DNA of 63,999 nt, filler included, from Asterionella formosa (lineage: Eukaryota), in the NCBI GenBank assembly GCA_002256025.1. It is 10 parts of 10 records of this genome, joined end to end, with 100 filler letters (N's around TTAATTAATTAA, not from the genome) between each part and the next. Parts side by side here need not be neighbours in the genome. Positions count along the whole stretch, not along the records: positions 1 to 18,387 come from NKIB01004055.1; positions 18,488 to 36,868 come from NKIB01004059.1; 8 more parts are not named here. One strand, given 5' to 3'. The notes under the pieces were generated by a model, which had not been told where the DNA came from, searched no databases, and saw only the letters and a program-made list of their open reading frames with translations. Shown here in pieces: positions 10,403 to 33,078 of the stretch (its first letter is position 1; every line of letters begins with the position of its first letter). The translations under genes were made by a program, and so were the position numbers.

Positions 10403-10566
10403 AATTTATAAATACTGTCAATTTCCGTTTTGACATTCCTCAGACTACATCTAGTCTTCGGACACCTGTCGACATCAACAGCCTAACAGACACATGCTGA
10501 CACTGGCTGTGTGTTGGCTGGGACAAGGGTACCGGTACCTGGTACCAGTATCAGGTACTCCGACTT

Positions 10567-10796
10567 CCAGCTGTAGGAAAACAACCAATATTCCTGAAAC
10601 TAAAGATTTAGCCATTTTTATCCTAGATTAAAATGTTTATTTAAGCAAAATGACCGAAGCTTGGAGGTAGTATGGTACCCGTATACCCGGTCCCTGGAAG
10701 TTGCGGTCATTTTGCTTGCTTGAATGAACAATGCGGCATAATTAAAGATAGCTAAATCTTTATATAGGAAAGCAATGTTTTACCGCAACTTGCTGG
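10567..10796. mobile_element. Two oppositely oriented copies of a ~100-bp MITE (10567-10667 minus; 10693-10796 plus)
   Basis: Unit CCTGGAAGTTGCGGTCATTTTGC...AAAGATAGCTAAA...ACCGCAACTTGCTGG with its own TIRs; TA follows the ends at 10667 and 10796; third copy at 26724-26819. Confidence 0.75.
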
Positions 10797-11149
10797 TACC
10801 TGGTACCACCCGGTAGTCTAAACAGTGATTTTTGTACCAACGTACGTAGGTCCTCGCGAACTCGTCACCTTTATTTCTGCAGGAGTATCAGCCATGTATG
10901 TTACTCTTGCGGCACATCATAAAAATCTCATCCAATACCGTTGAACCTCCCCAAACAAGATCGAATCGAATTCTATATTTAGAAATTTCAAAATGAAACC
11001 TTTTAGGGCAGGAGCACCAGCACGCTTTGCACATGTTCCTATTCCGACTCATCGTAAGTCACGCGGAAATAGACAGGATTAGTAACCTTCTTGTCGTCCA
11101 TTTTCAGACCGATATCAAACGTTCTTTGTCCAAGGACTGCGCAACAAAA

Positions 11150-11800
11150 TGGTACCTGGTGCCCAGGCACGGTAGCTAGGACTGCGTCGTTGTTGATTGC
11201 GGTGCTCCATTCCCCACAACCACTCCAGGGTGTACCTGGTACTCACCATTACGAAGTACCTGGTACCGGGACCTATCGCCTAGTAGTAGAGGGGTCCCTG
11301 GTACCGGAGTTCCAGCTACCAGTACTCCGTACCAGGGTACCGTACCTAATATACCTAGACAAAGAAAGTTTTACTAAGTAATTGGGACATGGGCACGGAA
11401 TCGTACTGGTAAACGTACGAACCAGTATCAGGTACTGGTGCCAGTTAATGAGTTTGCGTATCGGTAGGGTTTTTCTCTCCTGATAGCCTCGTGTTCAGGG
11501 TTACCGAAACCAAACACCGCCGATGTCGTTTGGTTGTGGTCGTTTTGGTCCTCCGCTAGCAACGCCCTTGGAGTGCGTACCTGGTATCTGGACTGTACCG
11601 GTACCGGTATATCACAATGCAATGACAGTACGGTACCAGTACTCTGCATCCATACCGGTACTGGTTGTATGCACGGGAAGAAACCTACCGGTACCAGATC
11701 CGACCAGGTACCTGGTACCAGGTACCATTACTGAAACATCCATTGAAGGGAAATACGCAGCAGTCAGTACCGGTAATCAAGCGCAGCTACCGGTACTAGG
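11150..11800. repeat. TA-CCWGG / TA-CCGG (GGTACC-rich) array upstream of the 12411 gene
   Basis: Dense GGTACC/ACCGGT/TACTGGTA words, e.g. CCAGGTACCTGGTACCAGGTACC at 11704-11726. Confidence 0.85.
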
Positions 11801-12410
11801 TATATTCCTCTTGAAACCATGGGGGTCACGATTACACCAACTAACGGTAAAATAAAAAGGAATGTTCCCCAAATATTTTGTTTCATGTGTGTATGAAGAT
11901 ATATATACGATTCAATGCTCTGTTCAAAATCGTTGATCATCCGATCACTCTATTGGATAGTATGGGACAACAATTTGGTCATAACCGCCATAGCCAACTG
12001 TTAACACGACAGAATTTTAAATTTAAAATATTGAGTACCGTCATTCTTGCAAATGATATGATAACGCATGATTATCCAGCGTTTCTATTGGTTCCCATTC
12101 TTGTAGAGTGAAGAAAAATTCCCCGATTTTCAGCAGATTATCGCTTTACCAGACTCTTTTCTCGTTACGTCGAGGTTGAATATTTTGTTTACCTATAGGC
12201 GCACCGGACTGCCTGTGAGTAGAGAAATACGTATACTCTTGTTCGTGCTTCGGTGGATTATACATACGGTGTATGTATAATCATACCCCTTGCCAATCTC
12301 CTTCTACCGGTATACTCCAAAAATACTAGGTATACACGGATCGCTTCGGAACCAACATCTTCCCAAGATCACATAATTTATAATCAGCAACAAGAGAGAG
12401 TCCATTCATC

Positions 12411-15400
12411 ATGGCTCGTTTCAGCAGTTTCGTTTTGGCTGTTTTGGCCACTGCTACTGTAGATGCAAGAAACCTACGCTACGCACCTCTCCGCTTTCTG
12501 CAAACGACAGTAGATCCCAACAGTTGTAAATGCTTTGGAGGTCCGCCTTCAGGAAATCGCAAATTGGTCAAGGCGAGAAAAGAAACTTATGATGAGGTTC
12601 AAGCCTCGACAAACGACAAGCGCGCTCTTTGGGGCGCTGCCTCAGACTCTCGGGACATTGGCATAACCAAGCCATCTTGCTGCGAAATGGTCTGTGAAGG
12701 AGGACCCACTCCTGTGGCGGCTCCGGTCGGTTCTCCTACAATGGGAGACGACTTTTACCAAGCTGCACCTACCACAACCGTCACTCCACCTGAGGGAGAT
12801 TCGAAGGGCGGAAAGGGAGGCTCGAAGGGCGGAAAGGGAGGCTCGAAGGGAGGAAAGGGAGGCTCGAAGGGCGGAAAGGGAAGTGGCAAGGGAGGAAAGG
12901 GAGAGTCGAAGGGCGGAAAGGGAGAGTCGACAATGGCAGTGGAACTTTGCGCGTTCTTCTCTACCATCTGCTGTCGCCTCTCGACANNNNNNNNNNGAGG
13001 CGGTGGTGGAGGTGGTGGAGGAGGTGGTGGAGGTGGTGGAGGAGGCGGTGGTGGTGGAGGCGGCGGAGGATACAGAGAATTGGGCTTTTACGTTACCAAT
13101 CCAGAATGCACTTGGGAAAGTTGTGGATGCTCAAACTCTCCTGTCTACAGCTCTCCAACTATGCCTCGTCCTACTCCTAAATATCCAGTTGAAGCGCCAT
13201 ACGCAGCACCTACTGTCCCTAAACCGAAGCCAACGATGCCTCGTCCTACCATGCCAATTCCTACCCCAACGGAACCTACACCAGTGACGGCACCATATGA
13301 ATCGCCATATGCATCGCCATATGCATCGCCTACTGCACCTCAACCAAAGCCAACACAGCCTCGTCCTACCCCAACTATGCCTTTCCCTACTCCAACATTC
13401 CCTCGACCTACCCCAACCATGCCAGTTCCTACTCCAACATTCCCTCGTCCTACCCCAACCATGCCAGTTCCTACCCCAACCATGCCAGTTCCTACCCCAA
13501 CCATGCCAGTTCCTACCCCAACCATGCCTCGTCCTAATCCAGAAGGTCCTATTGAAGCGCCAATTCCAATGCCAACTCCAACGTTTCCAAAGCCTACAGC
13601 ACCTATTCCCAAGCCACCTGTGACACCACCAGTGCGACCTCCGTTTACAGCCCCTGTCCCACAACCAATCACGGCACCAGTCCCCACAATGAATGAGACG
13701 CCAGCTCCAATCCCAGTCACTCCAGCTCCAGTCCCAGTCACTCCAGCTCCAGTCCCAGTCACTCCAGCTCCAGTTCCAGTCACTCCAGCTCCAATTACCC
13801 CTGCTCCAGTCACTCCACCTCCTGTGCCAACAATGAATAAGACACCAGCCCCAGTGACGCCTTCCCCAATTAATGCAACACCACGCCCAACTATTCCAGC
13901 TGATACCGAACCTACTCCTTCTCCTTCAGGCGTCTGCTTTGTCGAGGTAAGTCCATTTGCCAACAACAAGGAAAATCAAAATCCTTCTTTCCCAATTCAA
14001 ATTCTAACTTTACTTACTTGTCGCTATTTCAGGTCTCCGTAACTTGCGTTGGTCCTGACAATACTGAGTGCGCCTCAATCCCACCACCAGCTACCGAGAC
14101 TGACTGCATGGTAGACGTGACGTACACATATGTCATCACCAACACCGGATCTTCGGCAATGGACCTTACAAACCTTACAAGCACGCACAATGGTGTCACA
14201 GTATCATTAGTCGGATCTCTCGATGTTACTTCACTCCAACCGGGAGAATCAGTAACTGTCATCGAAACAAAGACAATTGATTTGTGCAGTGGTTCATCCT
14301 TCACTACTGACGTTTCTGTGGAAGCAGTTCCACCATCAGGATCTCCTTGCTCTGGAACTGACATATATGTCTTCACTCCATCCACTTTGGCTCCTGCTAC
14401 TCCAGCTCCCATCACACCTCCCCCCATCACTCCAGCTCCACAGATGCAAAAGACTCCTGCTCCTGTTAGTCCTGCTCCCGTTACTCCACCTCCCGTTACT
14501 CCACCTCCCGTTACTCCACCTCCCGTTACTCCACCTCCCGTTACTCCACCTCCCGTTACTCCTGTTCCGCAGATGCAGAAGACCCCTGGACCCGTTACAC
14601 CAGCTCCCATTACACTTGCTCCTGTAACAACAGCTCCCGTTGGTGTCTGCTTTGTCGAGGTATGTGTCAAGATTGAATTCCTTAAATTCCCAAACATGTC
14701 CTACTTCCCATTCACATCACTCTAACCTAACGTTCTTTTTCTATTTCAGGTCTCCGTCACTTGCGTTGGTCCTGACAATACTGAGTGCGCCTCAATCCCA
14801 CCACCAGCTACCGAGACTGACTGCATGGTAGACGTGACGTACACATATGTCATCACCAACACCGGATCTTCGGCAATGGACCTTACAAACCTTACAAGCA
14901 CGCACAATGGTGTCACAGTATCATTAGTCGGATCTCTCGATGTTACTTCACTCCAACCGGGAGAATCAGTAACTGTCATCGAAACAAAGACAATTGATTT
15001 GTGCAGTGGTTCATCCTTCACTACTGACGTTTCTGTGGAAGCAGTTCCACCATCAGGATCTCCTTGCTCTGGAACTGACATATATGTCTTCACTCCATCC
15101 ACTTTGGCTCCGGCCACTCCACCTCCTGTCACTTCAGCTCCTGTCACTCCGGTTCCGCAGATGCAAAAGACTCCTGCTCCTGTTACACCAGCTCCCATTA
15201 CACCTGCTCCTGTCACATCAGCTCCTGTTGGTGTCTGCTTTGTCGAGGTAAGTGTGAAGACATTGAATTCCAAATATGTGTTTTCCTAAGTCTTTCTAAC
15301 CAACTTTCTTTCTCCATTTTCAGGTGTCCCTCACTTGCGTTGGTCCTGACAATACTGAGTGCGCCTCAATCCCACCACCAGCTACCGAGACTGACTGCAT

Positions 15401-16142
15401 GGTAGACGTGACGTACACATATGTCATCACCAACACCGGATCTTCGGCAATGGACCTTACAAACCTTACAAGCACGCACAATGGTGTCACAGTATCATTA
15501 GTCGGATCTCTCGATGTTACTTCACTCCAACCGGGAGAATCAGTAACTGTCATCGAAACAAAGACAATTGATTTGTGCAGTGGTTCATCCTTCATTACTG
15601 AAGTAAATGTAATTGCAACACCTCCTTCGGGATCTCCCTGCTTCGGAACCGACAGATATGTGTTCACTCCATCCACTTTGGCTCCCGCAACTCCAGCTCC
15701 TGTTACACCAGCTCCCGTAACTTTTGCACCCACATCACTTTCTCCAACTCTCGCTCCTATTACGCCTGCTCCATCAACCTGTGAGCCATGGCTTGAAACT
15801 TGTCTATGTAATGGCACAATCAAGGTTGGATTCAATGTTTGCAACCCCCAGCCGGAGGATTGGATTGGCATCTACCCTTGTTTGAACACTACTAATGCGA
15901 CTCTCTACAATTATCATCCGTCAACTTGGCAATATACTTGTGTTGATGCGCCTTGTACTACTGACAACCTAGCCTACTCAGGCGATTTGGTTTATGATGA
16001 TAACCTTCCCACGTACGTTCAATATGGTCCTCATGAATGGCCTCTTCCTCCAGGTTGTTATATTGCAATCTACAACCGAAATTACGGACTGAGCCCACCG
16101 CCTTATGATATTGTTATCGAGGGTCAAGAGTTTTATGTTTGA
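12411..16142 (+). CDS. Secreted silaffin-like / cell-wall protein, ~1160 aa, 4 exons (12411-13946, 14033-14659, 14750-15247, 15324-16142)
   Basis: Signal peptide; RXL motifs (RNL, RFL, RKL, RAL, REL); SKGGKGG repeats; poly-Gly (across a short N gap); PT/PAP mucin-like repeats; three [11 protein letters not shown] beta-sandwich (DUF11-like) modules; C-terminal DWIGIY (SKICH/Fn3-like) domain. Three phase-0 GT-AG introns with CTAAC branch points; exon lengths keep frame. Confidence 0.88.
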
Positions 16143-17613
16143 AAGTGACAAATCTAAATTGGAAAGTGTCCGCCTCTGAACATTTCAAAGAACCTTGAAC
16201 GGAAGTTGACAACGTTAAATATTGTATAATCATTAAGAAGAAAATTCATTGAATCTGTTTCTCCTAATTGTATCCTAGGCTTTCAAGTTGTTCTTGCCAT
16301 GGTTTACATACTCTAATATTACTTTGGTTTAGGTTGTCTTATATTCCTCGCTTCCATGTTCGCACCGCCAATAATGATTATAATTGTAAAGCGAAGTAAC
16401 ACGTAGTTTCCTCAACTGCATTGCCATGAATCAACAGCCTTCACAAGCTGATCCATCGTTTTCATTATCATATCTAGACTGAGTCTATTGCACATAAAAA
16501 GTGAAAGGGTGTAATCGTCTAATAGTCATTGTGTCAGGAGCTAGGTAGTGTTATTATTTTATTGCCTAAATAGTCCCCCAGTCTAGATGCGCTTTATCCT
16601 GGTCCCACTGTACTAATTTGATCTCTACTGGGATCAATGCCTTGAAGAATCGGAAATTGTATCCCCCGAGGAAGGTGAGCAAAAATGGCCCTGGATGTGT
16701 CGTGAGGACCAGTTTTGAATCGTAAGTCGACTCCTATCAGAATGGAGGAAAATGAAATGCGTTCAACGTACGTTGATGAATTACTTATACGAAGGAACAT
16801 ACATTATTAAGGCATTTGGCATCTATTTATTCAATATAATAAAATTTCCGGAAATAGATGTGGTACACCGATGACAAGATGGCTGTAAAAATTATGTACG
16901 AAGATCCCGGTAAGCGTGGGCATAAACTTTGCAATTTCACAACGTACGTCGTGAAGTCACTTTCTACGACAAATATGAAGGTCATCGCGAAACATCGAGT
17001 CCCAGATCATCTGTATATACATGTATGAATAAATCTTCATTGTACTCTTGTTATTTGATTACCACAAATGCAATCATCCCTCCCTACCTTCTACTCCGAT
17101 AGTCGGACAGTGGCATTCTTTTATGAAACGGGAATACACGTCGGTGCTCAATGCTCCTCACAAGACAAAAATTTGAATTCAAATTGCTTAGGGCAGCATG
17201 TGTCTAGCAGCGTAACATATGCCACATGATATTACCGTTGGTGACTCACTCACATCCTCCTTTCTATTGGATAATTCATTTGTGAGTGACGAGTTCACCG
17301 CTCGGACTCGTGCAGATATTTTGCTTTACCAGACTCGTAATTGATCGCTCCATACGACACATCGAATGGATGGTTTGAATTTGGTGTTGCTCCGTATGAT
17401 GGCGCATCTTGGTTGGCTGTACAAACGTATACTCTGACCCGCCGAAAATCTAATACCGGTCGTAGATGCAAATGTGGTAGTAACCATGTAACGTCAGTAC
17501 CAATTCCCTCCATACCGGTAACTGAAATCAATTAGAACCAGGGCTTCCCAACGAGATCTTCACATGATCCTGACCCTCATATTTTCGTCCAAGCACATTT
17601 AGCTTTCATAGCC

Positions 17614-18387
17614 ATGGCCCGAATCATCGCCATTGTGCTGGCTCTATTCGCCTCAGTGGAAGCGAGCAACTTACGGTACGCACCTCTCCGCTTCCTGCAA
17701 CAAACACTAGACCCAAACACTTGTAAATGCTTCGGAGGTCCGCCCACTGCGGCGCGGAAGCTGCTCGAGAAGCCGGCAGCGAAAGCGCTGAAATCAGAAT
17801 CAGATGCGCAGTTGCCTTCCTCCCAACATAAAGGGCGACGCGCTCTTTGGGGCACTGCTGAGAACTCGCGAGACGTTGGTGGCAGTGATGCTGCCGAGGG
17901 AAAGCCAAACAAATGCAGCAAGAACGGAAGCGGATACAAGGCACTTCAAGATCAGTATGACTGCGAAATGAAGCAGTCCTGCTGCGAATTGGTCTGTCAA
18001 GGAGGACCAACTCCTGTGGCGGCTCCTGTCAGTGCTCCTACAATGGGAGACGACTTTTACCAAGCTGCACCTACCACAACCGTTCCCCCACCTGACAATG
18101 GAAGTGATGACTTTTATGTAACTGGTGGCGGCGGGTCCAAAGGAGGCCCTAAGCGTGGAAAGGGAGGGCCTTCTGGGAAAGGAGGAAACAAGGGTGGAAA
18201 GGGAAGTGATAAGAGCGGAAAAGGAAGCGATAAGGGTGGAAAGGGAGGAAACAAGGGCGGAAAAGGAAGCAGTAAGGGTGGAAAAGGAAGCAGTAAGGGT
18301 GGAAAAGGAAGCGATAAGGGTGGAAAAGGAAGCGGTAAGGGCGGAAAAGGAGGAGATAAGGGAGGAAAAGGAAGCGGTAGGGGAGGA
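17614..18387 (+). CDS. Tandem paralog of the 12411 protein, 3'-truncated at contig end
   Basis: Shares [54 protein letters not shown] with 12411 protein; long KGGKGS(D/S) repeat. Confidence 0.88.
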
Positions 18388-18487
18388 NNNNNNNNNNNNN
18401 NNNNNNNNNNNNNNNNNNNNNNNNNNNNNNNTTAATTAATTAANNNNNNNNNNNNNNNNNNNNNNNNNNNNNNNNNNNNNNNNNNNN
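18388..18487. other. Artificial contig spacer N44-TTAATTAATTAA-N44 (also 36869-36968, 38112-38211, 39355-39454, 40598-40697, 41841-41940, 43084-43183, 44327-44426, 62765-62864)
   Basis: Identical 100-nt linker with stops in all six frames, nine occurrences. Confidence 0.98.
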
Positions 18488-19461
18488 GAAAAAATACATG
18501 CAGCACAATTCGAAACAGTCAAACAGGAAAGGCAAGACAACAAATCAGGTAAGACTTACGGTTCTGGTGTTGCGCTCAGAAGGGAACATCAGGAAACAAG
18601 AAGGAAAGGAACAATTGTCTGCAATCATTGTGGCCGCAATGATCATCAAAGGAAAAGCAGCGCACTCTGTCCATTCAATGTACCGGTAGGCAAAGTGCCT
18701 GATCATACTGGTATGCTTATGATCAATGATGCTCAGCTACCTACTGTGGATATTGTACCGGCCAACACCCAAGAAAATATTACATGTGCATCCAGTATGG
18801 ACAGCCTGCATTTGCAAGACCGTGCAAACCAGGCCAATCAATTGTTGGTAAGTAATTGAACTTGACCAATCAAAATATTTATAGTGAAGCGTGCACTTAG
18901 AATGGATTTTTTTGTACAGGTGATTGTAGGACGAAAAATAGAATCACAAGACTCCTATTCCAATGATGACATTTTGGCGATTAGTGATTCTGATTCTGAC
19001 ACTTTGGTGACTGTTGAAAAGGCCGATATTGTCGAATTTTTGGACAATGATAGCTCAACGTTGGCAGGGTTTGAAGAAGAGTTAAGTACATAGGTAATCT
19101 TCATATAGCCCCAGAAGTTAACTTTCGGCGAGAAACTGCAGAAAGGAACTTCGGTTTTTGTACTAGGCCAAATAAACGAGTTAGCCCGGTAAAATCCACT
19201 ATTTTCAGCATAGTTAAAAAACCGAAGTTCCTTTCTGCAGTTTCTCGCCAGATCCTATATCCTGACGATATATAGCGTTGACCTATACCCCTACTTTGAT
19301 AAATGACTGTATTTAAGCATGTGGAAAGGGTGTGTATTGGTGAAAGCTCCGTTTAGCGATATACATTCACGTTTTACTCGTAAGAAGTCTATGTTTGACT
19401 ACTCTGACTTAATATTATTTTTTAAACCCTACCTCGAGCTAGGGGTTCAAATGCAGGAACC
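18488..19461 (+). mobile_element. 3' part of a Kolobok-like DNA transposon
   Basis: Similar to 59950-60898; ends ...TTCAAATGCAGGAACC followed by TTAA (19462-19465). Confidence 0.7.
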
Positions 19462-20307
19462 TTAAACCATGCATGGTTGTTTTTAGTACCACGTACGTAT
19501 GTAGACTAGATGACTGCCGGTACCGGTAGAATATCCGTTAAGCATCATTACCGGTACATACATGACCGGAGCAAAAACTTGCCACCAACATCAGATGTAT
19601 CGATATCATCGTTCGTCCGACGAAATATGGACGATGCGACTACATGAATACCTCGAGAAGACAAGCAATCCAACAATCAACCGCATCCGTTAGGCAAAGA
19701 ATCGCTACTGGCGTCATCGCGGAACTGATTTCGCTTCAAACCGGTCATGATGGACGACGATTGGCATGGTGAAAGGTGAATTGCCGGAGTCCACTTTTCA
19801 GGAGACGAACAAAAACGAGGTGAATTCTAGATATAAATTATCAGAATCTGAATAGTATATAAAATGGTTTCCTTAAGTAGACCCCTTGCCGATTTCGGCA
19901 ATCCCAGGGCTGGAAAACCGAGGGGCAATTGGTGTCTGTTGTCTTGCCAAAATGCGAACATATGAAATATATAAATATATTTTAATGATGGGCAATATTG
20001 GACCTTTGGCAATTTTCGAGGTGAAGATAGGAAATATAGAAAATGTATTTTATATGATGGGCAATAGTAGGCTAAAATTGACATTTATGCTAAATTTGTG
20101 GGCAGTAGGTAAGCGAATTACGCGACGATAGCTAGAGCGGGAATTGCCTCAACAATACCCTTCTCGGCGGCTACATGCCTTCTCGTTTACATGTGTACTC
20201 GGCTGGGATGGCACTCGTAGGGTGACCTTCTTGAGACCGTACAAGTGGCGCCCAGCCTCGAACACATGTATACTCGCAGGCAAGAGACCACCTCGGGCGT
20301 GTATTGC

Positions 20308-21303
20308 CTTCAGCACTATCGACTCCCGCTAGCTGAATATATGTAGCTTTTGATACAAACTCGTAGTAGAAAAGCAGTAAAGTGCATTAGTACAAGAAAA
20401 GCATTGCTTGGCGGCAATATTGACATGATTTTCAACAACTATACATACCAACAAATACAATCAACAGCAGCACAATACCACATCTTCAAAGAGTAGTCAT
20501 TGATCAATACATTGGTTCTTATTTAGATAGATACAATCGAAACAAAATGACAATGTGGAACGACAAACGATGATAGAAGCAATCAAAACAGACCATGGAA
20601 GCAATCAAATCGGAAATTCGATAAATAGGATCTACAATACTATTCATTGTTTCGCTGTTGCACTCACCGATTTGCTTCAACTAGCATAACAAGCAACAGA
20701 CAATGGAATCAAAGAAAGACGAAAGTTTCCTGTTGCAAGCCCAAATAGGGCAATGGCAGGCAGGATAGAGTGAGAAAAATATTATAACGTGTTCAAAGTA
20801 AGTGTTATATTTTATTAGCTTGAACCATGCCATGACCGGAATATCCTTTAAGCATCATCACATACATGACCAGAGCAAAAACTTACCAACAACATCAGAT
20901 ATATTCCGAGATTCATCATTTGTCCAAAGAATCATGGACGATGCAACAACATGAATCGAGAGTAAAACAGTGAAACACTGAATGTGATCGTAGATATGAT
21001 TATCGAATTTCCGATTTGATTGCCTCCATGGTCCATTTTGATCGCTTCCATCGTTGTTTCTCGTTCCACACTGTCGTTTTGATTCGATTGTAGCTATCTA
21101 CACAAGGGGAAATGTATGTATCAAAGCCTACTCTTAGAATATGTATTGTGCCATTGTTGATCTGTATAGTTGTTGACCATGATGTCAATGTTGCTGCCAA
21201 GCAATGCTTTTCTTGCACTAATCCGCTTTGCTACCTTAATACTACGAATTCGTATCACTAGCTACGTAAAAATGCTCAGCTAGATGGAGTCAATAGTGCT
21301 GGA
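20308..21303. repeat. Degenerate long inverted repeat (~310-bp arms 20308-20623 / 21001-21303)
   Basis: CCATGGAAGCAATCAAATCGGAAATTCGATA vs TATCGAATTTCCGATTTGATTGCCTCCATGG; CAGCACTATCGACTCC vs GGAGTCAATAGTGCTG. Confidence 0.8.
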
Positions 21304-21760
21304 GCAACCTGGCTATCACGCTTGCTCAGAATGGAATGATCAGTGTTGTTTGGTGGGAGGAATGACTGTGGCGGAAAGACTGATACTGGTGTCAGGCTAC
21401 TACAGCGATGTGCATGGTTGCGGCAACCAGATCATCTACGCTAAATAATGATGAAGGTCTAAATTGGGTTCAGCTTTTTTTTCTTCTTATTTTGGTCTTT
21501 GATTGTGTGGTGATGGAAAGTCAATTGCCTGTGTAAGTACTACAATGTCACAATGCATATGTCTCCATTGAAACTCCTATTTTTTACTTCATTGCTACCC
21601 AAAAAAATATTTTCAATTTCCTTTTTGACGCTTCTTATTACATCGCATTTCATATCATATTCAATTTTCATTGATGTTGCATGTTACAATCATTGTCGTG
21701 TGTTTTACGCTTGTTGTACCATTTCTATGTATATTACCATCATTCTGGCTGTCATGCTAA

Positions 21761-22972
21761 GGCCTCGTCTTACGGTGCCCGAATTAAGAAGATTGAGTCG
21801 CCCGAATACCTGTTGGGCGTTTAATCTTCGTATTTTCTTCCCTTACGGGCTAAATAACTCGCAAATCCCCCTGATTACGAAGATTAATCTTTTCTCGCCC
21901 AAATATTTCGAGGGTCATCCCCGATATTGACCCAATCTTTGTATTTTCTTGAACAATCTTCCTTTCCCAAAGATTAATCTTCGGGCAAACGAAGATTTTC
22001 TCCGCCAATCAGAATGGCGGAAACAATATATAATCGTCATCACATAGTATACTGATGATTTAGTGTTCGATACTTCTATTTGTAGTATTATTGTCATTAT
22101 TATTACATATTATTAATATAATAATTCTTACTTTTAATATTTTTACTATGATAATAACTTGTAACATGACGACTCCACCAACCCTATCGTCAATCTTCCT
22201 GGCACATTATCAACAGGCAGTGTTTGCAGCCATGGAAGCAACAGTGGTTGTCATGGCAACTACCAACAGCCTTGCCAGCTGCGTTGCGAAATGAGCTGGT
22301 TTCTCAGCTCCATTTGGAAGTTCAATCTGAAAGAGGGAATCAGCAATTGCCATTCAACAAGGTACCACACATATCATCCTCAAGGTCTTCATCCAGAAAT
22401 CGAAAATACGCTTCAGCCATATCTCGAAATTTCTTCTCCTCCCTAGATGCAAACCTGTGTTGAAGTTCATAACCAGCAGCAAATATAATGGCAAACTGCG
22501 CACTTCAAAGCATGTGCACTTGAATGGGGCCGCCTATCCAATATCGAATACGGTCGCAAAAGGAATGCTCCTCCTCCTCAGTTGAGTATTCTGTTGGTCC
22601 TTGAGTCGCCATTGTGATAATAGGGAGATGCTGGTGGTGGGAGCAGAGGAGAAAGGAGATAGGCCAGCGATGTGAAGGCCGATCACCTTACAACAACAGC
22701 AACGATGACGATGGAGCATTGAGTGTTGACGATTTTCATTATAATTAATTTCTTTAATATTCCTACGGACGAGACTACTAATTTTCATGTAGGAAATAAA
22801 TTTCAATTCTCGAGATCGGTCTTTGACGTATGGATTGACGTACTATTTAATCTTTGGGACCGGTAAAAAAATAAGGTGGCCATAAAATTTCACGAATACG
22901 AAAATCGAAGATTTTGCCGCGATAGCTTCGCAATATTCGATCTTCGTATTTCGGCCACCGTAAGTTTCAGCC
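21761..22972. mobile_element. Non-autonomous PIF/Harbinger-like element
   Basis: Imperfect TIRs GGCCTCGTCTTACGGTGCCCGAATTAAGAAGAT / ATCTTCGTATTTCGGCCACCGTAAGTTTCAGCC; subterminal AATCTTCG/CGAAGATT repeats; left flank TAA, right flank TA[CCGGTA]A. Confidence 0.55.
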
Positions 22973-23499
22973 TACCGGTAATATAGGCAATTTTAATCCC
23001 GAAAAATTCGATGTGCCCCATATTGCCCCTAAAAAAATTTCTTAACAAATTACTTAAAAGTACCCGTACAGCTAGGTCGGGAATTGCCTCAACAACACCC
23101 TTCTCAGCGGCTACCGGTATGTACTTAAATTCTCGTATACATGTGTACTCGCAGACAAGAGACCACCTCGGGCGTGTAATGCCTTCAGTAGGATTGTTTT
23201 ATAATTGTCACGGTCTTGTACCGATAATGAGTTAATTAGCTTTGTTTTCCCAATCGACCGATTGTAAAAACCGTCTTGTTTTACTGCACCTCCCTCCCGG
23301 GCATATGATCTGCCGTTACACTCCAGCCATATAACCATTCCGAGCACAATGTACCGGTATGCAGTATGGAGTCAGTGAATCATTCGCACAGAGAATGAAT
23401 TAACAATCTCGATACAGCCATCAGCAAACAGAGTGCAACCAGTAAATCATCCCCCTCGCCCTCTCCTGCCTTTGTTTAACAACTTCCCATTGAAGTAGG

Positions 23500-24390
23500 A
23501 TGCCTCGCATTACCATAGAACGTCACTATGCCACTACGTCCTGGTGGACAGGAGAGAAACAACCACACAAAAAACATCTCGTGGTTCGAATTCCACCCAT
23601 CTCTGCCCAAGTCAAGGCAGTGATTGCAAGCAAACTTAGCAAGGAGCAACCATGGCTGCTAGAAAAGTCTAACGTTGATCAAGCACAGTCTCAAGCAAAA
23701 GCAGCGTACGAAAAATTACATCAGTTCCAGAAAAATCTCGATTCATTACGAGAAGAACGAGAACAAGCGTTGTTGGATGTGACGGAAGTTAGAGGCAAGC
23801 AGTTGCAAACGTCACTCAAGGAGATGGAAGAACAGTTACGAAACGAGGTCGAAGAAGAGATTCTCACAAAAGATCAAGAATGTCAAATTATTTGTGAAGA
23901 AATGGAAGCGAAAATGATGAGTGCCATAAGGGACAAGCAAATGGAAATTCTAAAAAAGCGAACAGAAGACGAAGCAACTGCAGAGGCGGAGCCGCCAACC
24001 AAACGACTCAAATTAGAGGAAGGTGAATCAGAAGGCATTGAGGAAAATGTTACTGATGTACTCGATGAGCCAGCGAAGGAATCCGAGGAAATCGAGCAGC
24101 GAAAGCGTGATATCGAGGTAGGTAAACGCCGACGGTGTAGCGGTCTATTTTTCCCTGAACGGTGGGTGTTTGTCTACTATGGTGCGCTTATCACCTGCTC
24201 TCACATCTTCGCTTCTCTCTAGTTGGCTAAACAAAAAGCGGATAAACTCGAGGAAACAAAGAAACAAATGGTTTGGCTTTTGAAGCAAGTCATCAAAGCT
24301 GAAGCCAAGCAGCAGATGGCGAAAATTAAATTAGAAAAGGATAGTGAGACTGTTGCATATTTACCGGAAGCGGAGGATAAGTCGACATGA
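23500..24390 (+). CDS. Coiled-coil hypothetical protein, 261 aa (exons 23500-24117, 24223-24390)
   Basis: E/K/Q-rich ORF; phase-0 intron GTAGGT...CTCTAG joins to LAKQKADKLEETKKQMVWLLKQVIKAE; possible NLS PPTKRLK. Confidence 0.8.
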
Positions 24391-24513
24391 TGAAGGTACA
24401 CTAGAATGTAATGTTAATTATAATTCATCATTAAGCAGAGCAATTTCAGCATGCAGTATATTTATTGTCTAGCAATGACATTGAGATTCCTGGGTTGAAT
24501 AAATACGCAATGC

Positions 24514-26067
24514 TTAACTGCGATAATCCGCGTTGACGGAAATATACTCATTTGTCAAATCTGACCCCAAGACAGTTGCTCGTCCACTTCCGACAGTTCC
24601 AAAGTCAATACCAAGCTCCACAAACTTTTGGTGACGAGGAAATAACTCGTGTTCCCCATACTGTGCATCCTCCATGTGGTTGCTTAGAGCTTGTTCCACC
24701 TCGTTTCCTTCCAATATAAATTTGCCCTTGGAGAAAATAACACGGCCGCCAAGTGTCAAGCTCATTTCATCCACTTTCTCATCAGATTTAAATTTACCCA
24801 TGAAGGATCCAATGGCGGCTGCCAATCGTCCGGTATTGGGGTCATTTCCCGAAACAGCACATTTGAAGAGGGGTGAGTTGACGATATGACGGCCCAGTCG
24901 ACGGGCTTCATGATCAGTGCCGGGGAAGTTTTCGATTTGGACACGCATAACATGACCAGTTCCTTCTCCATTGCGGACAATGTCCGCGGCCAAACCCACG
25001 CAGACATCCTCAAGTGCTTCTTTAAACTCCTGCATATCCTCAAGTGGTACTTTATTGGACGAGATCAACACGAGCGTATCTGACGTTGATTCGTCTCCAT
25101 CCACGGACATGCTGTTGAACGAAATGTTCACCACCTCAGACAACATTTTCTGCAATGTTGCCTTGTCAACCATAGCATCCGTCATGATATATGACAACAT
25201 GGTGGCCATGTTGGGCTCAATCATGCCAGCTCCCTTGGCGATTCCAACTACACGCGCTCCACTTTTGAGTTGAAAGGACCGGAGCTTTGGGAATCTGTCA
25301 GTCGTCATGATTGCTTTGGCAGCGTTCATTGCAGATCCTCCTTGTAAATTGGCCACTGCTACGGGCACAACATCCTCTGCGAGTTCTTTGGCAGGCAAAC
25401 GCCATCCAATTACACCAGTTGAAGAGGGCAAGACAGTCTTGGCCCCGCCAGGAAGGTTAAGGGCCTTAGCGACGGCTTCGCAGACGAGCTCTGAATCGGC
25501 AACTCCGTCGCCTCCAGAACATACATTTGAGACCTTGTTGTTAATAACGAGAGCATGTAGGGGTCCGCCTGCCGCCAGTCGCGATCTGCCAACAATAATG
25601 GGGGCTCCGGGAAACTGGATGAAAGCAGATAATTATGATGCGGTGAGTTGACTTTTAACTGAGCAACACACCGGCGAGCAGACGTCGCTAAGTATTAGCA
25701 CAATAATGGCGTCCGACAAAAGCGCCATCGCACTCACCCTGTTTTGAGTGAACACTGCAGCCCAACTATCAGTTGGGCCATCCGTCAAATGAATGACAGT
25801 GCCTCGAATTGGCAAGTCTCCCAGCATCGGTGCTTCCTGAGAAACAAATTTACCAACGGCAGTTCCAGTCGCAAAGCCTTGCGGTAAAGCCGCAATAGAA
25901 GAAATGTACTCTATGTATGCTTCTTCCGACTCGAAGTCGGGCAACTGAGTCGCCATCCAGCGCGTCGGAGTAGTTCTAGTGAACGAAGGGGCGGCAAAAG
26001 CAGAAACCGAGCAAGCCGTCATAGACAAGGTAAAAAGTAGCGCTCTCATGCAGGTAGACATCATCAT
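24514..26067 (-). CDS. argJ: Ornithine acetyltransferase / N-acetylglutamate synthase ArgJ, predicted plastid-targeted (exons 26067-25738, 25614-24514)
   Basis: AAVFTQNR|FPGAP across a GT-AG intron; STGVIG, IMTTD, KGAGMIEPNMATML autoproteolysis motif, DGDESTSDT, C-terminal NADYRS; signal peptide + VSA-FAAP motif. Confidence 0.95.
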
Positions 26068-26349
26068 CTTTTGCTATTGTTATTGCTGTTGCAGGTGTTA
26101 CAGTTGCTGTTTTGTGCAGCTTATGCAGCCCAACAGAGGATCACTACACTAAACCGACAGTGTGATACAGGAACAAGCTAGAGTCGAAAGGCTTACTGGG
26201 ATGCAATTTCACAATGCATATGCAAACTCCGCAGGCCGCAGCATTAAAATCGGCGGAGGATTCTCAGATCACATAAATCAGGACGCAAAGAACCGCTAAA
26301 TTATCGCGCAAACACGCACACAGTACGGAGTACATGGTTAAATACAAGT

Positions 26350-26835
26350 ACTCCCAGGTACCTGGTACCAGGGTCGTCTACCTGGTGCCTGATACATTGC
26401 AAATAAAGGGGCCCCAATGATGGGGATCGCAAATCTTATGTACCAGTACTCCAGACTCCGGATGTGAAAATGTATGACAACCTGGTACCAGGTACCAGGT
26501 ACTGTACAACCAGATCAGCAACTTGGAAGGACTACCTAAAAAAGGACGTTTTGCCTATCGCTCAGAAAGCAAATGTCAGTATGTACCGGTCGTAGGAAGA
26601 ATTTCAATTTTCCTCAAATGGTACCAGGTACAGCCATACCAGGCCACCTGGTACCTGGTACCAGCACCATTATTTCATGACATGATCTCTTGTCCCTATC
26701 ACCAGCATACCAGGTTCCTGGTACCTGCAACTTGCGGTCATCGTCCTTAAATAAACAATTTAATATGGAATAAAGATAGCTAAAGTTTTCATTTCAGCAC
26801 AATTACAGCAACTTGCTGGAGTACCTTGTACCAGT
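26350..26835. repeat. TA-CCWGG array plus MITE copy (26724-26819) in the argJ/trxF divergent intergenic region
   Basis: CCAGGTACCTGGTACCAGG, CCTGGTACCAGGTACCAGGTAC, CCTGGTACCTGGTACC; MITE begins TA|CCTGCAACTTGCGGTCA and ends CAGCAACTTGCTGG. Confidence 0.8.
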
Positions 26836-27324
26836 TAATAGCAAATATATGTACCGGTGGGCGCTAGGATAGTAAACATGTAGCTCTACAACCAGAGGAT
26901 CATGGATTTTCGACGTCACGAACGGCCGGAGGATGTGTGATTTGTTTGTCTGGTGCGTTGCTTCTACCTTTCCTTGAACCCTTTCTCTACTGCGATCTTT
27001 CGACTTATTCGACTCTTTTCCAAAAGCAAGGCCGCGGCAAAATAAGAACACTGATGCTGTGGCAGAGATACATACGTCCTAGACCGCTGACGTCCGATGT
27101 CAACAACAGCCGCTGTCAAATATTGCGGTATCTGGATACCGGAAGTATTGATTGATGGATGTTCTTAGCGTTGCTTATCCTACATACGGTCGTAGTCTAT
27201 TCTGTTATTTCGCTATGCTGTACTGTGCATGCCAATTTTTATTTACAGTCGAGCATCACATTGATATCCAAACCAATTCCCTCCAGTTACGGTTATTAGA
27301 AGAGCAAACATCCACCTGTCCACC

Positions 27325-28082
27325 ATGAACCGTCTAATCACTCTCCTCCTAGCTGTCATCTCAGCGGCTTCCGCCTTTTCGCCCGCTTTTACACGCATCT
27401 CGTCTCCTCGATCACGCAGTACGATGATGATGCGCGTTGTGGATATTGATTCCGAATCTGCGTTTGACAAAACCGTCAAGTCGGCAGGAGATGCACTCGT
27501 GGTGGTGGACTACTCGACAACTTGGTGCGGACCTTGCAAAGTTATTGCTCCCAAATTTGATGAGTTTAGTGACAAGTATCCTAGTGCTGTTTTCCTCAAG
27601 GTAAGGATGAGGAAATGAATTGGCACGCACATGCATTCATGCATGATTGAATAGAAATGACTTGATCCATTTTAATTGCGATGGGACAAGAGAACTGAAA
27701 GCGAGAGCATAATAAAAAGGATGTAGACGCGTTGATGTGAATGCATTCTACACTATATTATCATTCGAGCAAGTTGCGTTTTTGTGTAAGATCGTCATGC
27801 TTCTGTTGTTCACAGCTCGTCGGTGCCTTGTTCAGTGGCAAGCAATGTTGGCATAAGTATCATGTGGCTGGTAGAAGGAAATACTTTCGTTCACTGACAC
27901 TATTCTATTTCCATCTGCAGGTGATTGGAGACGCTTCTCCGGACGCTTCCAAGTTAATGAAGAGAGAAGGTGTCAGATCGGTTCCTTCTTTTCACTATTT
28001 TAAGAATGGAGAAAAGGTGGACGTTGTTAATGGTGCTAATGCGGAAGCAATCGAAGCTGCCATTACCAAGAACCTGGCTTAA
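27325..28082 (+). CDS. trxF: Plastid thioredoxin (f-type), 145 aa (exons 27325-27600, 27921-28082)
   Basis: WCGPC active site; signal peptide + ASA-FSP motif; 320-bp phase-0 intron GTAAGG...TGCAG joins AVFLK|VIGDASPDASKLMKREGVRSVPSF. Thioredoxin call is firm, f subtype is by recollection of diatom homologs. Confidence 0.9.
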
Positions 28083-28596
28083 CTATTCATTTTGCAGAGA
28101 ATGTCAATAATTTGTATCGTCGATTGAGCCGAGCTTGGCTTGTCTCGTTTGTTCCAACGATTGGGTGAAGTGGTTTGAAATTTAATAGCGTAACATAGAG
28201 AGAGAATGGGAAACGCTACAACCCCAAACTATTTTCGTTCCTGCTGTCAACCAACAAATTATTTTAAGACCTGCTTGCTGCGTGATAATTGCAACTTTAC
28301 ATGTAGGCTGTGATTATTTTCATGTTTCTACACACAAGGAATTCACACGCATATGATGTAGTACATGGCCAATTCGAAATGTCGGGTCGGTGGCCACCCG
28401 GCAAATGCTATCTAACGTGGAATACTCTGACAATTTCTCTTGGACCGAACTTGACTGGTTTTGGCTGGAAAATTTCTAAGCACCGTTAGTATCAGCTAGT
28501 CTTGGAACAAAAGCAACGAAAAGCTAGGTAGCATACCATGAACTATAATTTGGTTCAACGTTGCTACTTTAATGCATCAATACAGGATTATGATAT

Positions 28597-29544
28597 TTAC
28601 TTCGCGCACGGCGAATAATACACCGTGGTGACAAATTTGGTTTTGTAACGCTGTGTAATCCCCAGAACCATCATGTTATCTCGAATCGCTGTACAATACA
28701 AGTGATTAAGAGCCACGTGCTGCGGTACCGGTAGGGCTGCAGTATCTTGCAACTGCGGCGGTTTGTTCAGAATGATATGCCGCAGATGAGGAGGAAGAGG
28801 CGGTGGTTCCTTTGTGTATTCGTCCAAGTCGGGCATGGTTTGTGAAAAGGTCTCCCCATCTCGGTCTGGTTTGTTGGCCAACTCTTTTTTATCGATTGGG
28901 TCGTTCTCTTCTTGTGGAACTTCACTGCTATCGGGCAGTGCATAGGTGCCATATTCAGCAGCAGCCTTTTCCTTCTCGAATTCTCGATCGCCAGTATACG
29001 CTTTGAAGTCAGTTACATCGATAAAGTTATTGATTCTCCCTTCAATGTCGGCAACAGTCGGTTGATCAGGAGCGAACCGCCACTCGTCGTCTACGATGAA
29101 TTTGAAAGCGTGCTTTCCTCGTTTCAAGTTGTGAATGTACGTAAAGTCGTTTCCTGACCGATGCATCGGAATCTGCCGACTCCAGCCATTGAATGTCCCA
29201 GTGATGTAGACCTGTCGCCCCCCATGTTCCCACCGGAAGACTGTTGGCACAGTGTCATCGTCTAACCATGTTCCTTCCAGTTTCGACGGGTCCACATCTG
29301 CAGCAGACATGGCAGTATCTCCACTGGCTTGCTGCTGCGGCGACTTGCGTAGTTGCTGTGCTTCATGGGCAGGCGAATCGTGGTATCCGAATGATCCATA
29401 CGCACCAGGTTGATTTGACTTGGGAGCAAATCCTTGGGGAGTGAAACCTGATTGAGGAGCACCTCGACCCTGCACTTGAGCCATACGAGGGTCCTCAGCT
29501 CCTATGCCGGCACTGCCGCCGTTGATTGGCTGCTGATTGCCCAT
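28597..29544 (-). CDS. SNF1/AMPK protein kinase beta subunit
   Basis: N-terminal MGN (myristoylation-type); CBM48 domain PTVFRWEHGG...FKFIVDDEW; ASC domain PPPLPPHL...HVALNHLY...RYKTKFVTTVYY. Confidence 0.95.
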   Translation of the reverse strand: MGNQQPINGGSAGIGAEDPRMAQVQGRGAPQSGFTPQGFAPKSNQPGAYGSFGYHDSPAHEAQQLRKSPQQQASGDTAMSAADVDPSKLEGTWLDDDTVPTVFRWEHGGRQVYITGTFNGWSRQIPMHRSGNDFTYIHNLKRGKHAFKFIVDDEWRFAPDQPTVADIEGRINNFIDVTDFKAYTGDREFEKEKAAAEYGTYALPDSSEVPQEENDPIDKKELANKPDRDGETFSQTMPDLDEYTKEPPPLPPHLRHIILNKPPQLQDTAALPVPQHVALNHLYCTAIRDNMMVLGITQRYKTKFVTTVYYSPCAK

Positions 29545-29954
29545 GTTGACTCAATGACCTGCTGTAGGAATTCTTTTGATAAGTGTGTCTTTTCGACGGT
29601 GTGTGGTACTGAGCCCACTTGTGTCAAGTCGGATACAATGCCGTTGTTCTTCTGAATCGTCGGGTGTTGGTCGGCTTTTTTGCTCGTTCAGTTGCAAGAT
29701 GTGCGAGTCCTATCAACGCTTCGTATAAGTCTCCTGAATTGAAGCCTTCCTAGCAACGTGGCGATGGGCTCTTGAGGGGCAGAACAATGGATCCTGTAAG
29801 CTTGCTATATGGATGATGGGGCGACTCGCCTCGTCGTTCTAAGCTACCAGTAGCGCGTTTTTCATTTTTTCGTTGACACCTGCTGCTACCAGCATGAACT
29901 GGTATCACACCTACATACGCTACATTCTACAGTGTATGTATGCCTACCATCAGG

Positions 29955-30340
29955 GGGTATACCGGCACCAGGTACGGGAGGTACCAGGTACCATGTACCT
30001 GGTAACTGGTACATACATACATTGTGCGACCAGGGACCAATATTGATTATGATACAGAAGATGTACCGGTAAATGGTCTATGTTGGGTACCCTGGTACCT
30101 GGTACCAGGTACCAGATATACCACACAAGGAATCATAGGTACAAGTAGCAGCTGTATACATATACGGTATGTCAAATATATGTGCTGAATTATGATATAA
30201 AAAATGCATTTCCTGTGAAGCAGCATACCGTACTTTTTAAGTGCGGGTACCCGGTACCTTAGCCGCCCACCTTTTTTACCTACCTCTACTACCGGTAGTG
30301 TAAACCGGGAGAGCACCCATTCATCATACACACCGGTATA
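29955..30340. repeat. TA-CCWGG / TA-CCGG array in the AMPK-beta / LRR divergent intergenic region
   Basis: GGTACCAGGTACCATGTACCTGGTAACTGGTAC (29980-30012); GGTACCCTGGTACCTGGTACCAGGTACCAG (~30086-30115). Confidence 0.85.
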
Positions 30341-30610
30341 TTTATCTTTGTAAATACCCATTTCAGTCCCAGTACATGTGTATGTATTTGTTCTGCAGAA
30401 AACGTGCGTCATGTGTCTATACGGACTACCACGTACCAAGAACATTCGTACAGAACAATAATAAGTGAATCTTATACCTACCGGTATATAATATGAAGCA
30501 CAAGAAAACAGCAATGAATTCATCGTTTTCGCCACTGAAAGCCAAAACAAGATCGAGTTCCTGCCGCACAGCTCGAAAATTTCCTCCCTCCTGGATTCTT
30601 CATTTACTAA

Positions 30611-32047
30611 ATGAATGTAAGTTGTTGAGGGATGACAAGCGAGAGAAATATAATCTACAAGGTTCGACTCGAAAGAAACTAACTCGCTCTCGATTCCAAG
30701 ACGGATGACCGTCTCCCATCGAATGTCTATAAGCTTTTCCAGCAGCTCAAAGACCCTTCCAAGCAGACTAAGGCTGAGAAGAAGATAATCATGCTGGTCC
30801 TTGCTTACCCCCAAGTAGCGCAGTTTGGGATTGGGTCGACGACCATGCTTCATTTCCTCTGTGCGTCGCAAGCGACGTTCTTGACTGTCAAGACTGTATA
30901 CGACGCCTACCCCAACGCGATCATGGCCGACTGTGGTGACGGTCTGCCCCTACATGTTGCATGTCGAAAAGCATCGCCCGTTGATGTCATTGCATTTCTA
31001 GTTAATGCGTATCCATCGGGCATTTCACAGTTGGGAGACGGACGCAGTCCACTCTCCCTGGCGATTCAAAATCATCCGTTACGGAGGCACCTACTGTCTA
31101 TCTTATCTTGTCCAAAAACGATATCTTCCCTTGGTCCCATAAGGATGGAGTGGAATGTTGATACTGAATTCCTCCTTGACGGATTTCGAGCTTTTACGGA
31201 GCTAGTCAAACCTACTAGACTCAACGTTCGAATCTGTCGTGGCATGACGGCATCCTCGTTGTCGTTAGAGAACAGACATGCAGGAACTCTCTCTGTTCAT
31301 GCATGGTTTCTTCCTCATTTAATTGAATCAGTTCTGTTGGAGATTGGCAAAATTTGTGGGGCATCCACCAACCTGTTTATTGATTATTTTGAAGGCCTCG
31401 ATGAAGGGTTGGTGCGAGGAATCGCAGGTGTACCATCTCTTGAACGTCTTTCAATGTGCCGATGCAGTACAGATGAACAGACTGTGCGATCTCTCTTGCA
31501 AGAGCTATCAAAAAAGCCTAACTTTATCCATCTCCAAATGACCAGGATGGATGCCATTCCTGGTAGATCGTTTGAACATTTGCCGTGCTTACGTTCTCTT
31601 GAATACTTGTCCGTTTCGGGCACACCTGTCGATTCGGACATTGCAGTGCCCATCAGCCAGCTGTTGCGGACAACACAGTCCTTGAAAGAACTAAATATTG
31701 GTCAAACTCGGATTGATCGAGATGGAGTAGGCACTTTGATTGCTGCCATTCGGCAAAATGATACCTTGACAAGACTTGAATTGACTGGATTACTTGGAGC
31801 ATCAGAAAAGGTGCGTGTACTTCTTGAAAGTATCAACTGCAAGCTTGAACATGTGATTGTTGGCATGACAGATGTGAACAGGGAAGCCATTGACTATTAC
31901 TGTGCACTGAACAAGTCTGGTCGTTCTGTGACACGGGAGATTGAAACCACAAAAAGTCAGTACATAACTATTTTATCCAATGTGAATGCAGATATTGGGT
32001 TGCTCTTTGGTCTCCTTCGAGAAAATCCTGCCAAATGGGTCTTATAG
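30611..32047 (+). CDS. Ankyrin-like + RNI-type leucine-rich repeat protein (proposed exons 30611-30616, 30701-32047)
   Basis: LPLHVAC and SPLSLAI ankyrin-like motifs; LRRs (SLKELNIGQTRI, NDTLTRLEL); C-terminal YYCALNKSGR...LLFGLLRENP typical of diatom LRR proteins. Main ORF 30791-32047 is firm; the 5' micro-exon is inferred. Confidence 0.8.
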
Positions 32048-32344
32048 CACTAAAAACATTTAGTTGTATGTACACTCTTGTATATTGGCATTTTTGAGAA
32101 TTCCTTTTGCTGTCAGGTTAGACAGCACACCTGTGTAGGAGCAATATTGAGTTTGAGGCATTCAAAATGTTACTGTAGTCTAGTACTCCCCTTGATAAAC
32201 TATAGTTGATCACTCTCTCAGCGCATACGTTTCTTCTCCAGCAGTACTTTTTGCTGCTCATCATCGCTCCAGTTTGTGTAGCAAATATAAATGGACTCAT
32301 AATGGTAGCCGCCTAATAGTGAGCTTACTTGGTAAAACTGATTA

Positions 32345-32720
32345 GAGAACCAGGTAACTATGAAATCCGGAGTACGCTACCGGTATGATACATATTCACA
32401 GCAGTGGTGCGTATCATGGGTAAAGTCGAACATGAGGACGGTTGAAGTCAGGACGACACGATGCTACGAGACGATGAGCATACCGGTAGTAAGTAACGGT
32501 ACCAGGTACCAGGTACCCGTAACAGGTACCTGGTACCTGGTAGATACCTGCTGGTACATGGTACCAGGTTGTGACTACAGTATACACATAAAATGTACAG
32601 TTCTCCGGTGTTACGTGATAGATATGGGTGGCTGGGCTGCACCACCAAGACAAAATATATCTCAAAACACTCCTACCACTATTAATATGTACCGGGTATA
32701 TACCGGTATCATACCGTGCA
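32345..32720. repeat. TA-CCWGG / TA-CCGG array upstream of FAD synthetase
   Basis: GGTACCAGGTACCAGGTACCCGTAACAGGTACCTGGTACCTGGTAG (~32498-32543); TACCGGGTATATACCGGTA (~32690). Confidence 0.85.
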
Positions 32721-33078
32721 CTGTGCACTGTATATGCCATTCTGTACGTGCCTGCAATTGTCTCTATATGGGTGCGTTTCCCATTATACGTCATGCATGA
32801 TCCATATCATCACATCGTAGCTTCTGCCTTGCTTTTAGTCTTATCATGTATATATTCATACCGGAATATGTTATCCTCGCAATCGCTCCATGGTGATTGT
32901 CAATCTACCGGAAGTACCGGTAAATCAATTGCTTGAGTTTCCCTTAATCCTCTAATACCACCAGTACATACCAGTAGTCTACATAATGCATACCGCATTT
33001 ACATTTACAATTACAAGAACCATCGCTCAGCCAAGGCCAAGGCTGTGATGTTGCTTTCCATTCGCTAGCAGCTTCGCA

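Follow-up and report, generated by a model that had tools for sequence, protein, structure and literature searches.

The question raised by this locus is what has written the short palindromes, or words, packed into the sequence upstream of its genes. In the 63,999-nt stretch of the Asterionella formosa assembly GCA_002256025.1 that we analysed (the window), the words TACCGGTA, TACCWGGTA, GGTACC and TACTGGTA/TACCAGTA gather in five clusters of 2,190 bp in total, and an earlier note on this DNA had explained them as stacked excision footprints of a Tc1/mariner transposon. Our analysis indicates that the words are probably fixed excision scars of TA-targeting elements of the Tc1/mariner superfamily, left by two families and afterwards reworked by slippage and by a third element. 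The window is made of contigs joined by spacers of the form N44-TTAATTAATTAA-N44 (at 18388-18487, 36869-44426 and 62765-62864), and the pieces on either side of a spacer are not genomic neighbours.

The five dense clusters claimed in the earlier note are borne out by exact word counts: they hold 20 of the 21 copies of TACCWGGTA in the window, 38 of the 46 of GGTACC, 12 of the 28 of TACCGGTA and 5 of the 11 of TACTGGTA/TACCAGTA. When the window was shuffled 100 times with its dinucleotide composition approximately kept, TACCWGGTA, TACCGGTA and GGTACC reached means of only 0.25, 0.35 and 7.7 and maxima of 3, 3 and 17. The first cluster (10525..10815; 2 TACCWGGTA, 1 TACCGGTA, 6 GGTACC) is mostly two copies of an 88-bp miniature inverted-repeat transposable element (MITE) and adjoins the terminal repeat of a Mutator-like (MULE-type) element; the second (11150..11800; 5 TACCWGGTA, 6 TACCGGTA, 3 TACTGGTA/TACCAGTA) lies 610-1260 bp 5' of the ATG at 12411. 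The third (26350..26835; 5 TACCWGGTA, 8 GGTACC) occupies the divergent gap between the ArgJ and thioredoxin genes, 450-930 bp from the 5' limit of the thioredoxin RNA contig (27284), the fourth (29955..30340; 4 TACCWGGTA, 2 TACCGGTA) the middle of another divergent gap, 250-635 bp from each RNA-contig limit (29705 and 30587), and the fifth (32345..32720; 4 TACCWGGTA, 3 TACCGGTA) a tandem gap, 360-730 bp 5' of the next ATG. Measured from the nearest 5' limit of an RNA contig, clusters 3-5 are about 250-930 bp away and outside the contigs, which do not give true transcript starts. Gene calls, Pfam matches and RNA contigs agree with the claim that the clusters sit 5' of genes, two of them in divergent promoters. 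The same word count was zero in the convergent gaps 24390-24514 and 28082-28597; since both gaps are short and consist in part of transcribed 3' ends, little can be drawn from their lack of words alone, and the bias was retested on more DNA. The description of the clusters as (TA-CCWGG)n arrays stood only in part: the words are tandem in places, but they cover just 10-17% of the bases of each cluster and the tandem runs comprise 2 to about 6.6 imperfect units. Therefore, the clusters are patches rather than unbroken arrays.

The words are abundant far beyond the window. Counted against paired control words in the 68.4-Mb assembly, TACCGGTA occurs 28,528 times (control 1,718), TACCWGGTA 26,886 times (control 902) and a 19-nt stacked pattern has 2,915 forward matches (control 0); together the words number about 55,000 in 68 Mb, approximately one per 1.2 kb. 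In 198 kb unselected for words the excess over Markov expectation is 18-fold for TACCGGTA, 27-fold for TACCWGGTA and 4-fold for TACTGGTA/TACCAGTA. The orientation test combined these 198 kb, from two long contigs, with 37 kb from two window contigs (234 kb total), using a crude codon-model gene caller and keeping gaps over 4 kb separate. Per 10 kb, coding calls contained 0.3 words, convergent gaps 5.6, tandem gaps 17.4 and divergent gaps 30.6; with 80 words over 26.2 kb, the divergent gaps are approximately 5-fold denser than the convergent ones, which have 9 words over 16.2 kb. At least three words were found in 14 of 20 divergent gaps and in 0 of 20 convergent ones, and the odds ratio per TA is 5.1, with a p value that overstates the significance because words cluster. 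Just 1 of 67 words in tandem gaps falls in the fifth adjoining the 3' end of the upstream gene, the words are mostly 250-1000 bp upstream, and gaps over 4 kb are word-poorer (2.3-10.7 per 10 kb). The upstream bias is real, as the proposal of enrichment near gene starts anticipated; targeting, tolerance and selection are each compatible as its cause.

The origin of the words was examined on indels between paralogous repeats, collected from about 0.85 Mb of loci, many of them picked for containing elements. The set contains 816 distinct indels of 3-40 nt, 138 of which duplicate TA. Exactly CCGGTA is found in 13 of the 70 six-nt indels, and none of the 13, one of which lies in the window, fits a tandem duplication; 3 of the 29 seven-nt indels are CCWGGTA, two of them unfit for tandem duplication. 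Hence the prediction that indels at the words would be insertions at TA is favoured by 13 CCGGTA and 2 CCWGGTA cases that slippage cannot make. MITE copies gained CCGGTA, or CCGGTA together with CCTGGTA units, at consensus TA sites, and wherever many copies lack the word, as in these MITE copies, the alignments make the polarity of the change, a gain, clear. The word in the window is the TACCGGTA at 19549..19556 in a multi-copy repeat: three paralogs, alike over 14 nt on each side, carry TA alone and differ by CCGGTA, and one more distant paralog is also without it. This word is present in 5 genomic copies, and contigs of three DNA runs omit the 6 nt there; the five copies are probably one event copied along with the host repeat. 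In single-copy pieces of 18488-36868, contigs of four runs also show net length differences of +13, +7, -11, -6, +3, -6 and -2 nt, which were not counted as evidence.

TA-targeting transposons with CC...GG ends, whose presence the footprint proposal requires, are resident and young, and they belong to two families, with CCG...CGG and CCA...TGG ends. Of 116 candidates, 93 matched PF03184 over the cut-off; the young full-length copies of the CCG family, 2.46 kb long and mostly over 99% identical, read TA-CCG...CGG-TA and encode a DD35D transposase of about 420 aa. The family thus has the TA duplication, the terminal inverted repeats and the DDD transposase of Tc1/mariner elements. A second PF03184-type (pogo) family also begins CCG and a third begins CAG. 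The CCA family, which begins CCACC, was represented by 224 ends against 2 for controls. In 9 of 13 end pairs it stands between two TA, the outer flanks being unrelated; its empty paralogous sites have a single TA, and a coding stretch of the family has 37 matches, 11 of them at 98% identity or above. Its transposase, about 700 aa judging by relatives, has three conserved Asp with DD37D spacing and falls on DDE_1 clusters in the Atlas (0.95), and the model of a 67%-identical relative ranked Mos1 transposase first (E 4e-4) at a low TM-score of 0.23/0.44. By sequence and model, the CCA family likewise combines TA duplication and terminal inverted repeats with a DDE/D catalytic domain of the Tc1/mariner type. 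The named relatives of one transposase are from Fragilaria; together with the gene content and the freshwater sequencing runs in which the stretch occurs, they suggest a diatom. PF13358 (DDE_3) gave 0 matches among 16 candidates, PF01359 and PF01498 not being searched, and the survey of element ends covered about 0.7 Mb of the 68 Mb and 30 of the 93 DDE_1 loci.

The core letters of both words are the terminal letters of these resident TA-duplicating elements, and the discriminating result is the context in which the two occur. GG precedes the TA in 38 of 55 CCA ends and in 51 of 78 copies of TACCWGGTA; the corresponding figures are 0 of 20 for CCG ends and 13 of 94 for copies of TACCGGTA, the background being 7% of all TA. 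The indels behave in the same manner, with GG before TA in 1 of 13 CCGGTA and in 3 of 3 CCWGGTA. TACCWGGTA therefore resembles the CCA family and TACCGGTA resembles the CCG family. The transposon origin proposed in the note is favoured by the indels and by young matching families, but one family is insufficient: at least two are needed, one per word. At one locus (L264:196-900) two CCA-family elements abut at a single TA, an arrangement to be anticipated if an element of this family offers its preferred target at its own end.

These observations can be assembled into the following scheme, in which we infer the insertion-excision cycle behind each word, how long the overhangs are and how they are joined, the CpG decay and what causes the upstream bias. 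Elements of the pogo type with CCG...CGG ends would insert at TA regardless of context, and on excision two 3' overhangs CCG would pair via their terminal CG to give TA-CCGG-TA; TACTGGTA/TACCAGTA would then arise by CpG decay of TACCGGTA, a decay that their 4-fold excess fits. The DD37D family with CCA...TGG ends would favour TA after GG, i.e. the edge of an earlier scar. If two CCA overhangs overlap by a single base, A:A, and this is resolved to either letter, they would leave TA-CC(A/T)GG-TA, with CCAGG and CCTGG equally frequent; the predicted letter pair is TACCAGGTA and TACCTGGTA. A scar placed within GG-TA-CC would leave GGTACC on each side, and since GGTACC is thus rebuilt on both sides the CCA family would keep its preferred target and the words would stack, as in a ratchet. 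Slippage would then add same-letter units, and the 88-bp MITE, which duplicates CWG, would afterwards insert in the middle of words. TACCGGGTA, which a one-base overlap of CCG ends would yield in the analogous way, shows an enrichment too (7 against 1.2). For Sleeping Beauty and mariner, 3-nt 3' overhangs at the donor site and scars of non-homologous end joining are established (PMC7827188).

Several facts weigh against the scar scheme. The roughly 55,000 words face a few hundred element ends and would require very many fixed excisions. Among the flank matches listed for 250 element ends, no locus has an element in one copy and the scar in a second, and in a genome-wide check of one site 5 of 5 copies carry the word and none an element; the power of both tests is low. 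The CCGG core fits reported scar lengths, but the CCWGG core, at 5 nt, exceeds them, and a lone terminal A:A overlap has to be postulated for it; the full fill-in product TACCATGGTA is rare, with 4 copies counted over the two strands where TACCAGGTA has 78. The CCA transposase had no match in a Pfam search and none in a pairwise BLASTP comparison with a resident DDE_1 protein. CAG-ended pogo elements are resident, yet TACAGTA is just 1.4-fold enriched and TACATGTA is without enrichment. Only 3 clean CCWGGTA indels were found, gain can be told from loss only where many copies lack the word, adjacent units share their letter above chance (73:47, p 0.02), and slippage of a 7-mer would by itself account for part of the GG context of TACCWGGTA. 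Finally, the commonest TA-duplicating indel has a 1-nt core (50 of 138, of which 26 are slippage-compatible) and 13 further events have a GC core, with no source element found for either. These other TA-duplicating indels form series of their own, core C/G (50 events) and core GC (13), and TAGWCTA is enriched 2.8-fold; a family with G ends, repaired through a one-base overlap in like manner, may have left them as scars, and no G-ended element matching the C/G and GC cores was identified.

Part of this would be relieved if the letters came from element ends without a full insertion-excision cycle, by aborted integration or by capture of end oligonucleotides at TA breaks, or if another family reading CCGG/CCWGG were the source. 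We regard this as unlikely, although it survives better than the other alternatives. The approximately 100-fold excess of words over element ends, the lack of any site found both occupied and scarred, and a 5-nt core beyond the scar lengths reported for Sleeping Beauty and Passer would all suit a route without full cycles, and the limited coverage of the end survey leaves room for another family. Against another family, the flanking context of each word fits one named resident family, and a scan of the examined loci for TA-flanked inverted repeats revealed no dispersed CCGG-ended family; the one that looks CCWG-ended is the MITE that duplicates CWG.

One might also argue that the words are a microsatellite with a 7-bp unit that slippage has expanded and that is retained upstream of genes as transcription-factor sites, with the transposons as bystanders. 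The excess of same-letter neighbours and two loci that are 98.4% identical and differ by whole double units speak for slippage; the 5-fold upstream bias speaks for binding sites, as do the identity of TACCGGTA with promoter motif M94 of Phytophthora infestans (PMC3597505) and the binding of its sister word TACATGTA by PsMyb37 (PMC11134190). However, the 13 CCGGTA and 2 CCWGGTA indels at isolated TA in repeats cannot be tandem duplications, mixed-letter neighbours make up 47 of 120 pairs, and a binding site leaves gains with TA duplication unexplained. Length changes by whole same-letter units are true of some run extensions and false of isolated gains. Slippage as the sole origin is refuted by the non-tandem indels, and the combined explanation appears improbable to us; slippage or binding may act after the words arise. 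The excision-footprint origin put forward in the note has indirect support from non-slippage indels and matching young families, with the amendment that slippage also extends runs; a targeting of open chromatin and a role of the transposons as generators of new promoter sequence are hypotheses.

That the 88-bp MITE of clusters 1 and 3 is itself the source, as a TA-duplicating element with CCWG ends whose excision writes TACCWGGTA, is very improbable: many copies do read TA-CCWG...CWGG-TA (490 exact ends), and unlike third bases would allow a one-base A:T overlap, but in 30 of 31 copies the two sides carry an identical W, as in a direct repeat, and this letter is unlinked to internal variants; the outer TA is often missing, and there are copies with GAG/GAG and CCG/CCG flanks, all of which amounts to a 3-bp target duplication. 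The reading could be saved only by two hidden subfamilies, each with a fixed W.

The flank test behind this verdict used 87 left MITE ends chosen by internal sequence in 90 loci, 63 of them with a right end; a first look at the genome had given 882 candidates. CWG stands on both sides in 31 of the 63, with the same letter in 30 of those 31 (15 A and 15 T by element orientation); 28 of the 63 have different flanks, and 4 more have a non-W middle letter on one side. The absence of a link between W and internal variants was seen in 21 copies. Because the flanking W is the same on both sides, the MITE duplicates CWG: the words are its target, not its product, and the CCWG-looking element was dropped as their source. 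The window has a degenerate copy at 10576..10663 (+ strand; aligned over 10587-10663, left end projected), a copy inverted relative to it at 10697..10792 (- strand) and a full-length copy at 26728..26815 (- strand, within cluster 3), the latter two with CAG on each side. MITE ends begin CAAG or, less probably, GCAAG with a one-base duplication. The target preference of Harbinger3_DR is reportedly comparable. No autonomous partner with DDE and Myb/SANT open reading frames and the same ends was present in the 30 examined of 150 PF13359 loci; a very young high-copy PIF/Harbinger family (L070-L090), interrupted at an identical position in dozens of contigs, was ruled out as the partner by its GGGTCG ends after TNA. 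At independent sites (L099, L108, L150, L168, L171, L174, L176, L179 and L195) 1-2 extra letters stand beside the CWG duplication, e.g. CCTG-TG-CAAG. Long, near-perfect foldbacks whose arms measure hundreds of bp (L193:710-1784, L184:691-1298 and L041:458-2436), two of them made of MITE ends round other sequence, are possibly an assembly artefact.

Cluster 1 begins about 115 bp past the MULE-type element at 8155-10410, which has inverted ends at 8172-8284 and 10269-10374 and a broken MULE transposase frame between them. A fragment of another dispersed repeat (11446-11568) lies inside cluster 2; a relative of it sits within a MITE after TTAA with a GG start (L091), which suggests a Harbinger-type end.

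The genes flanking the clusters are backed by Pfam and a poly(A) run. They form the divergent pairs ArgJ (24517..26067, - strand) with thioredoxin (27325..28082, + strand, one GT..AG intron of 320 nt) and AMPK beta subunit (28597..29544, - strand, its RNA contig extending to 29705) with a gene showing a weak ankyrin match under the Pfam cut-off (30731..32047, + strand); cluster 5 is upstream of a gene with a PAPS-reductase domain (33079..35250, + strand), whose product we take to be FAD-synthetase-like. Cluster 2 precedes a + strand gene at 12411..16142 with a signal-peptide-like start, Gly/Lys- and Pro/Thr-rich repeats and three internal repeats of about 600 bp each; a Pfam search of its first 190 aa found no family. 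A paralog is encoded at 17615-18387; both proteins look secreted and contain GGKG repeats as well as tracts rich in Pro and Thr. Elsewhere in the window there are six pieces in a row of 1,143 bp each (36869-44426 region), a tandem repeat of five copies with a unit of 146-150 bp (39730-40487), what is presumably a copia-type reverse-transcriptase fragment (43184-44326) and what we assume to be a fasciclin-like gene (61770-62312), the last two judged by their motifs.

Compared with known systems, the words are like the footprints of Sleeping Beauty and Mos1 in that TA is duplicated round a few end-derived letters, there by end joining of 3-nt 3' overhangs. The Sleeping Beauty scar is 3 nt (PMC7827188), that of Passer in human cells 0-4 bp (PMC9976928) and the Tc1 footprint is taCATGta (as cited in PMC3520976). 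The words differ in cores of 4 and 5 nt, in about 55,000 fixed copies per 68 Mb, where the accessible literature describes footprints from assays or as rare alleles, and in their apparent stacking, with one family favouring the scar edge. The literature searched, with partial coverage, contained no description of stacked transposon scars at genome scale. By features, not by tree, the CCG family is like Passer of the pogo superfamily (PMC9976928), with TA duplication, short terminal repeats, approximately 2.46 kb, approximately 420 aa, DD35D and PF03184, whereas the CCA family, with DD37D, about 700 aa and no Pfam match, is unlike it. The 88-bp MITE resembles the NuwaI group of the PHIS superfamily in CWG duplication within a palindromic target; NuwaI repeats usually begin GGG and are, in the accessible text, reported from animals only (PMC4482050), and the MITE begins CAAG.

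A further parallel comes from another stramenopile. The promoter motifs M94 (TACCGGTA) and M93/motif-1 (TACATGTA) of Phytophthora (PMC3597505, PMC3520976) are the same or sister palindromes and are common upstream of genes; TACATGTA is without enrichment here, unlike in Phytophthora. Seidl et al. raised a Tc1-footprint origin of TACATGTA and rejected it (PMC3520976), which speaks against our scheme as well. In Phytophthora, conservation and PsMyb37 binding favour function (PMC11134190); here the indels and the matching elements favour scars. A wider scar ratchet, in which one family seeds TACCGGTA, a second rebuilds its own target, a third has specialised on the words, the host reads the palindromes as cis-regulatory or nucleosome-positioning sites, and TACCGGTA/TACATGTA of Phytophthora are older domesticated scars, is distinctly unlikely as a whole.

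If the words are scars, then scars rather than transposon copies would be a major writer of the non-coding sequence of this genome. They would preserve a record of excisions whose elements have since disappeared, and would offer a route from transposition to simple repeats. With the CCA-ended DD37D family comes a lineage of transposases that prefer a target sequence and lack Pfam annotation. A palindrome in excess upstream of stramenopile genes would not have to be a binding site under selection, and the scar scheme reopens the origin of the Phytophthora motifs.

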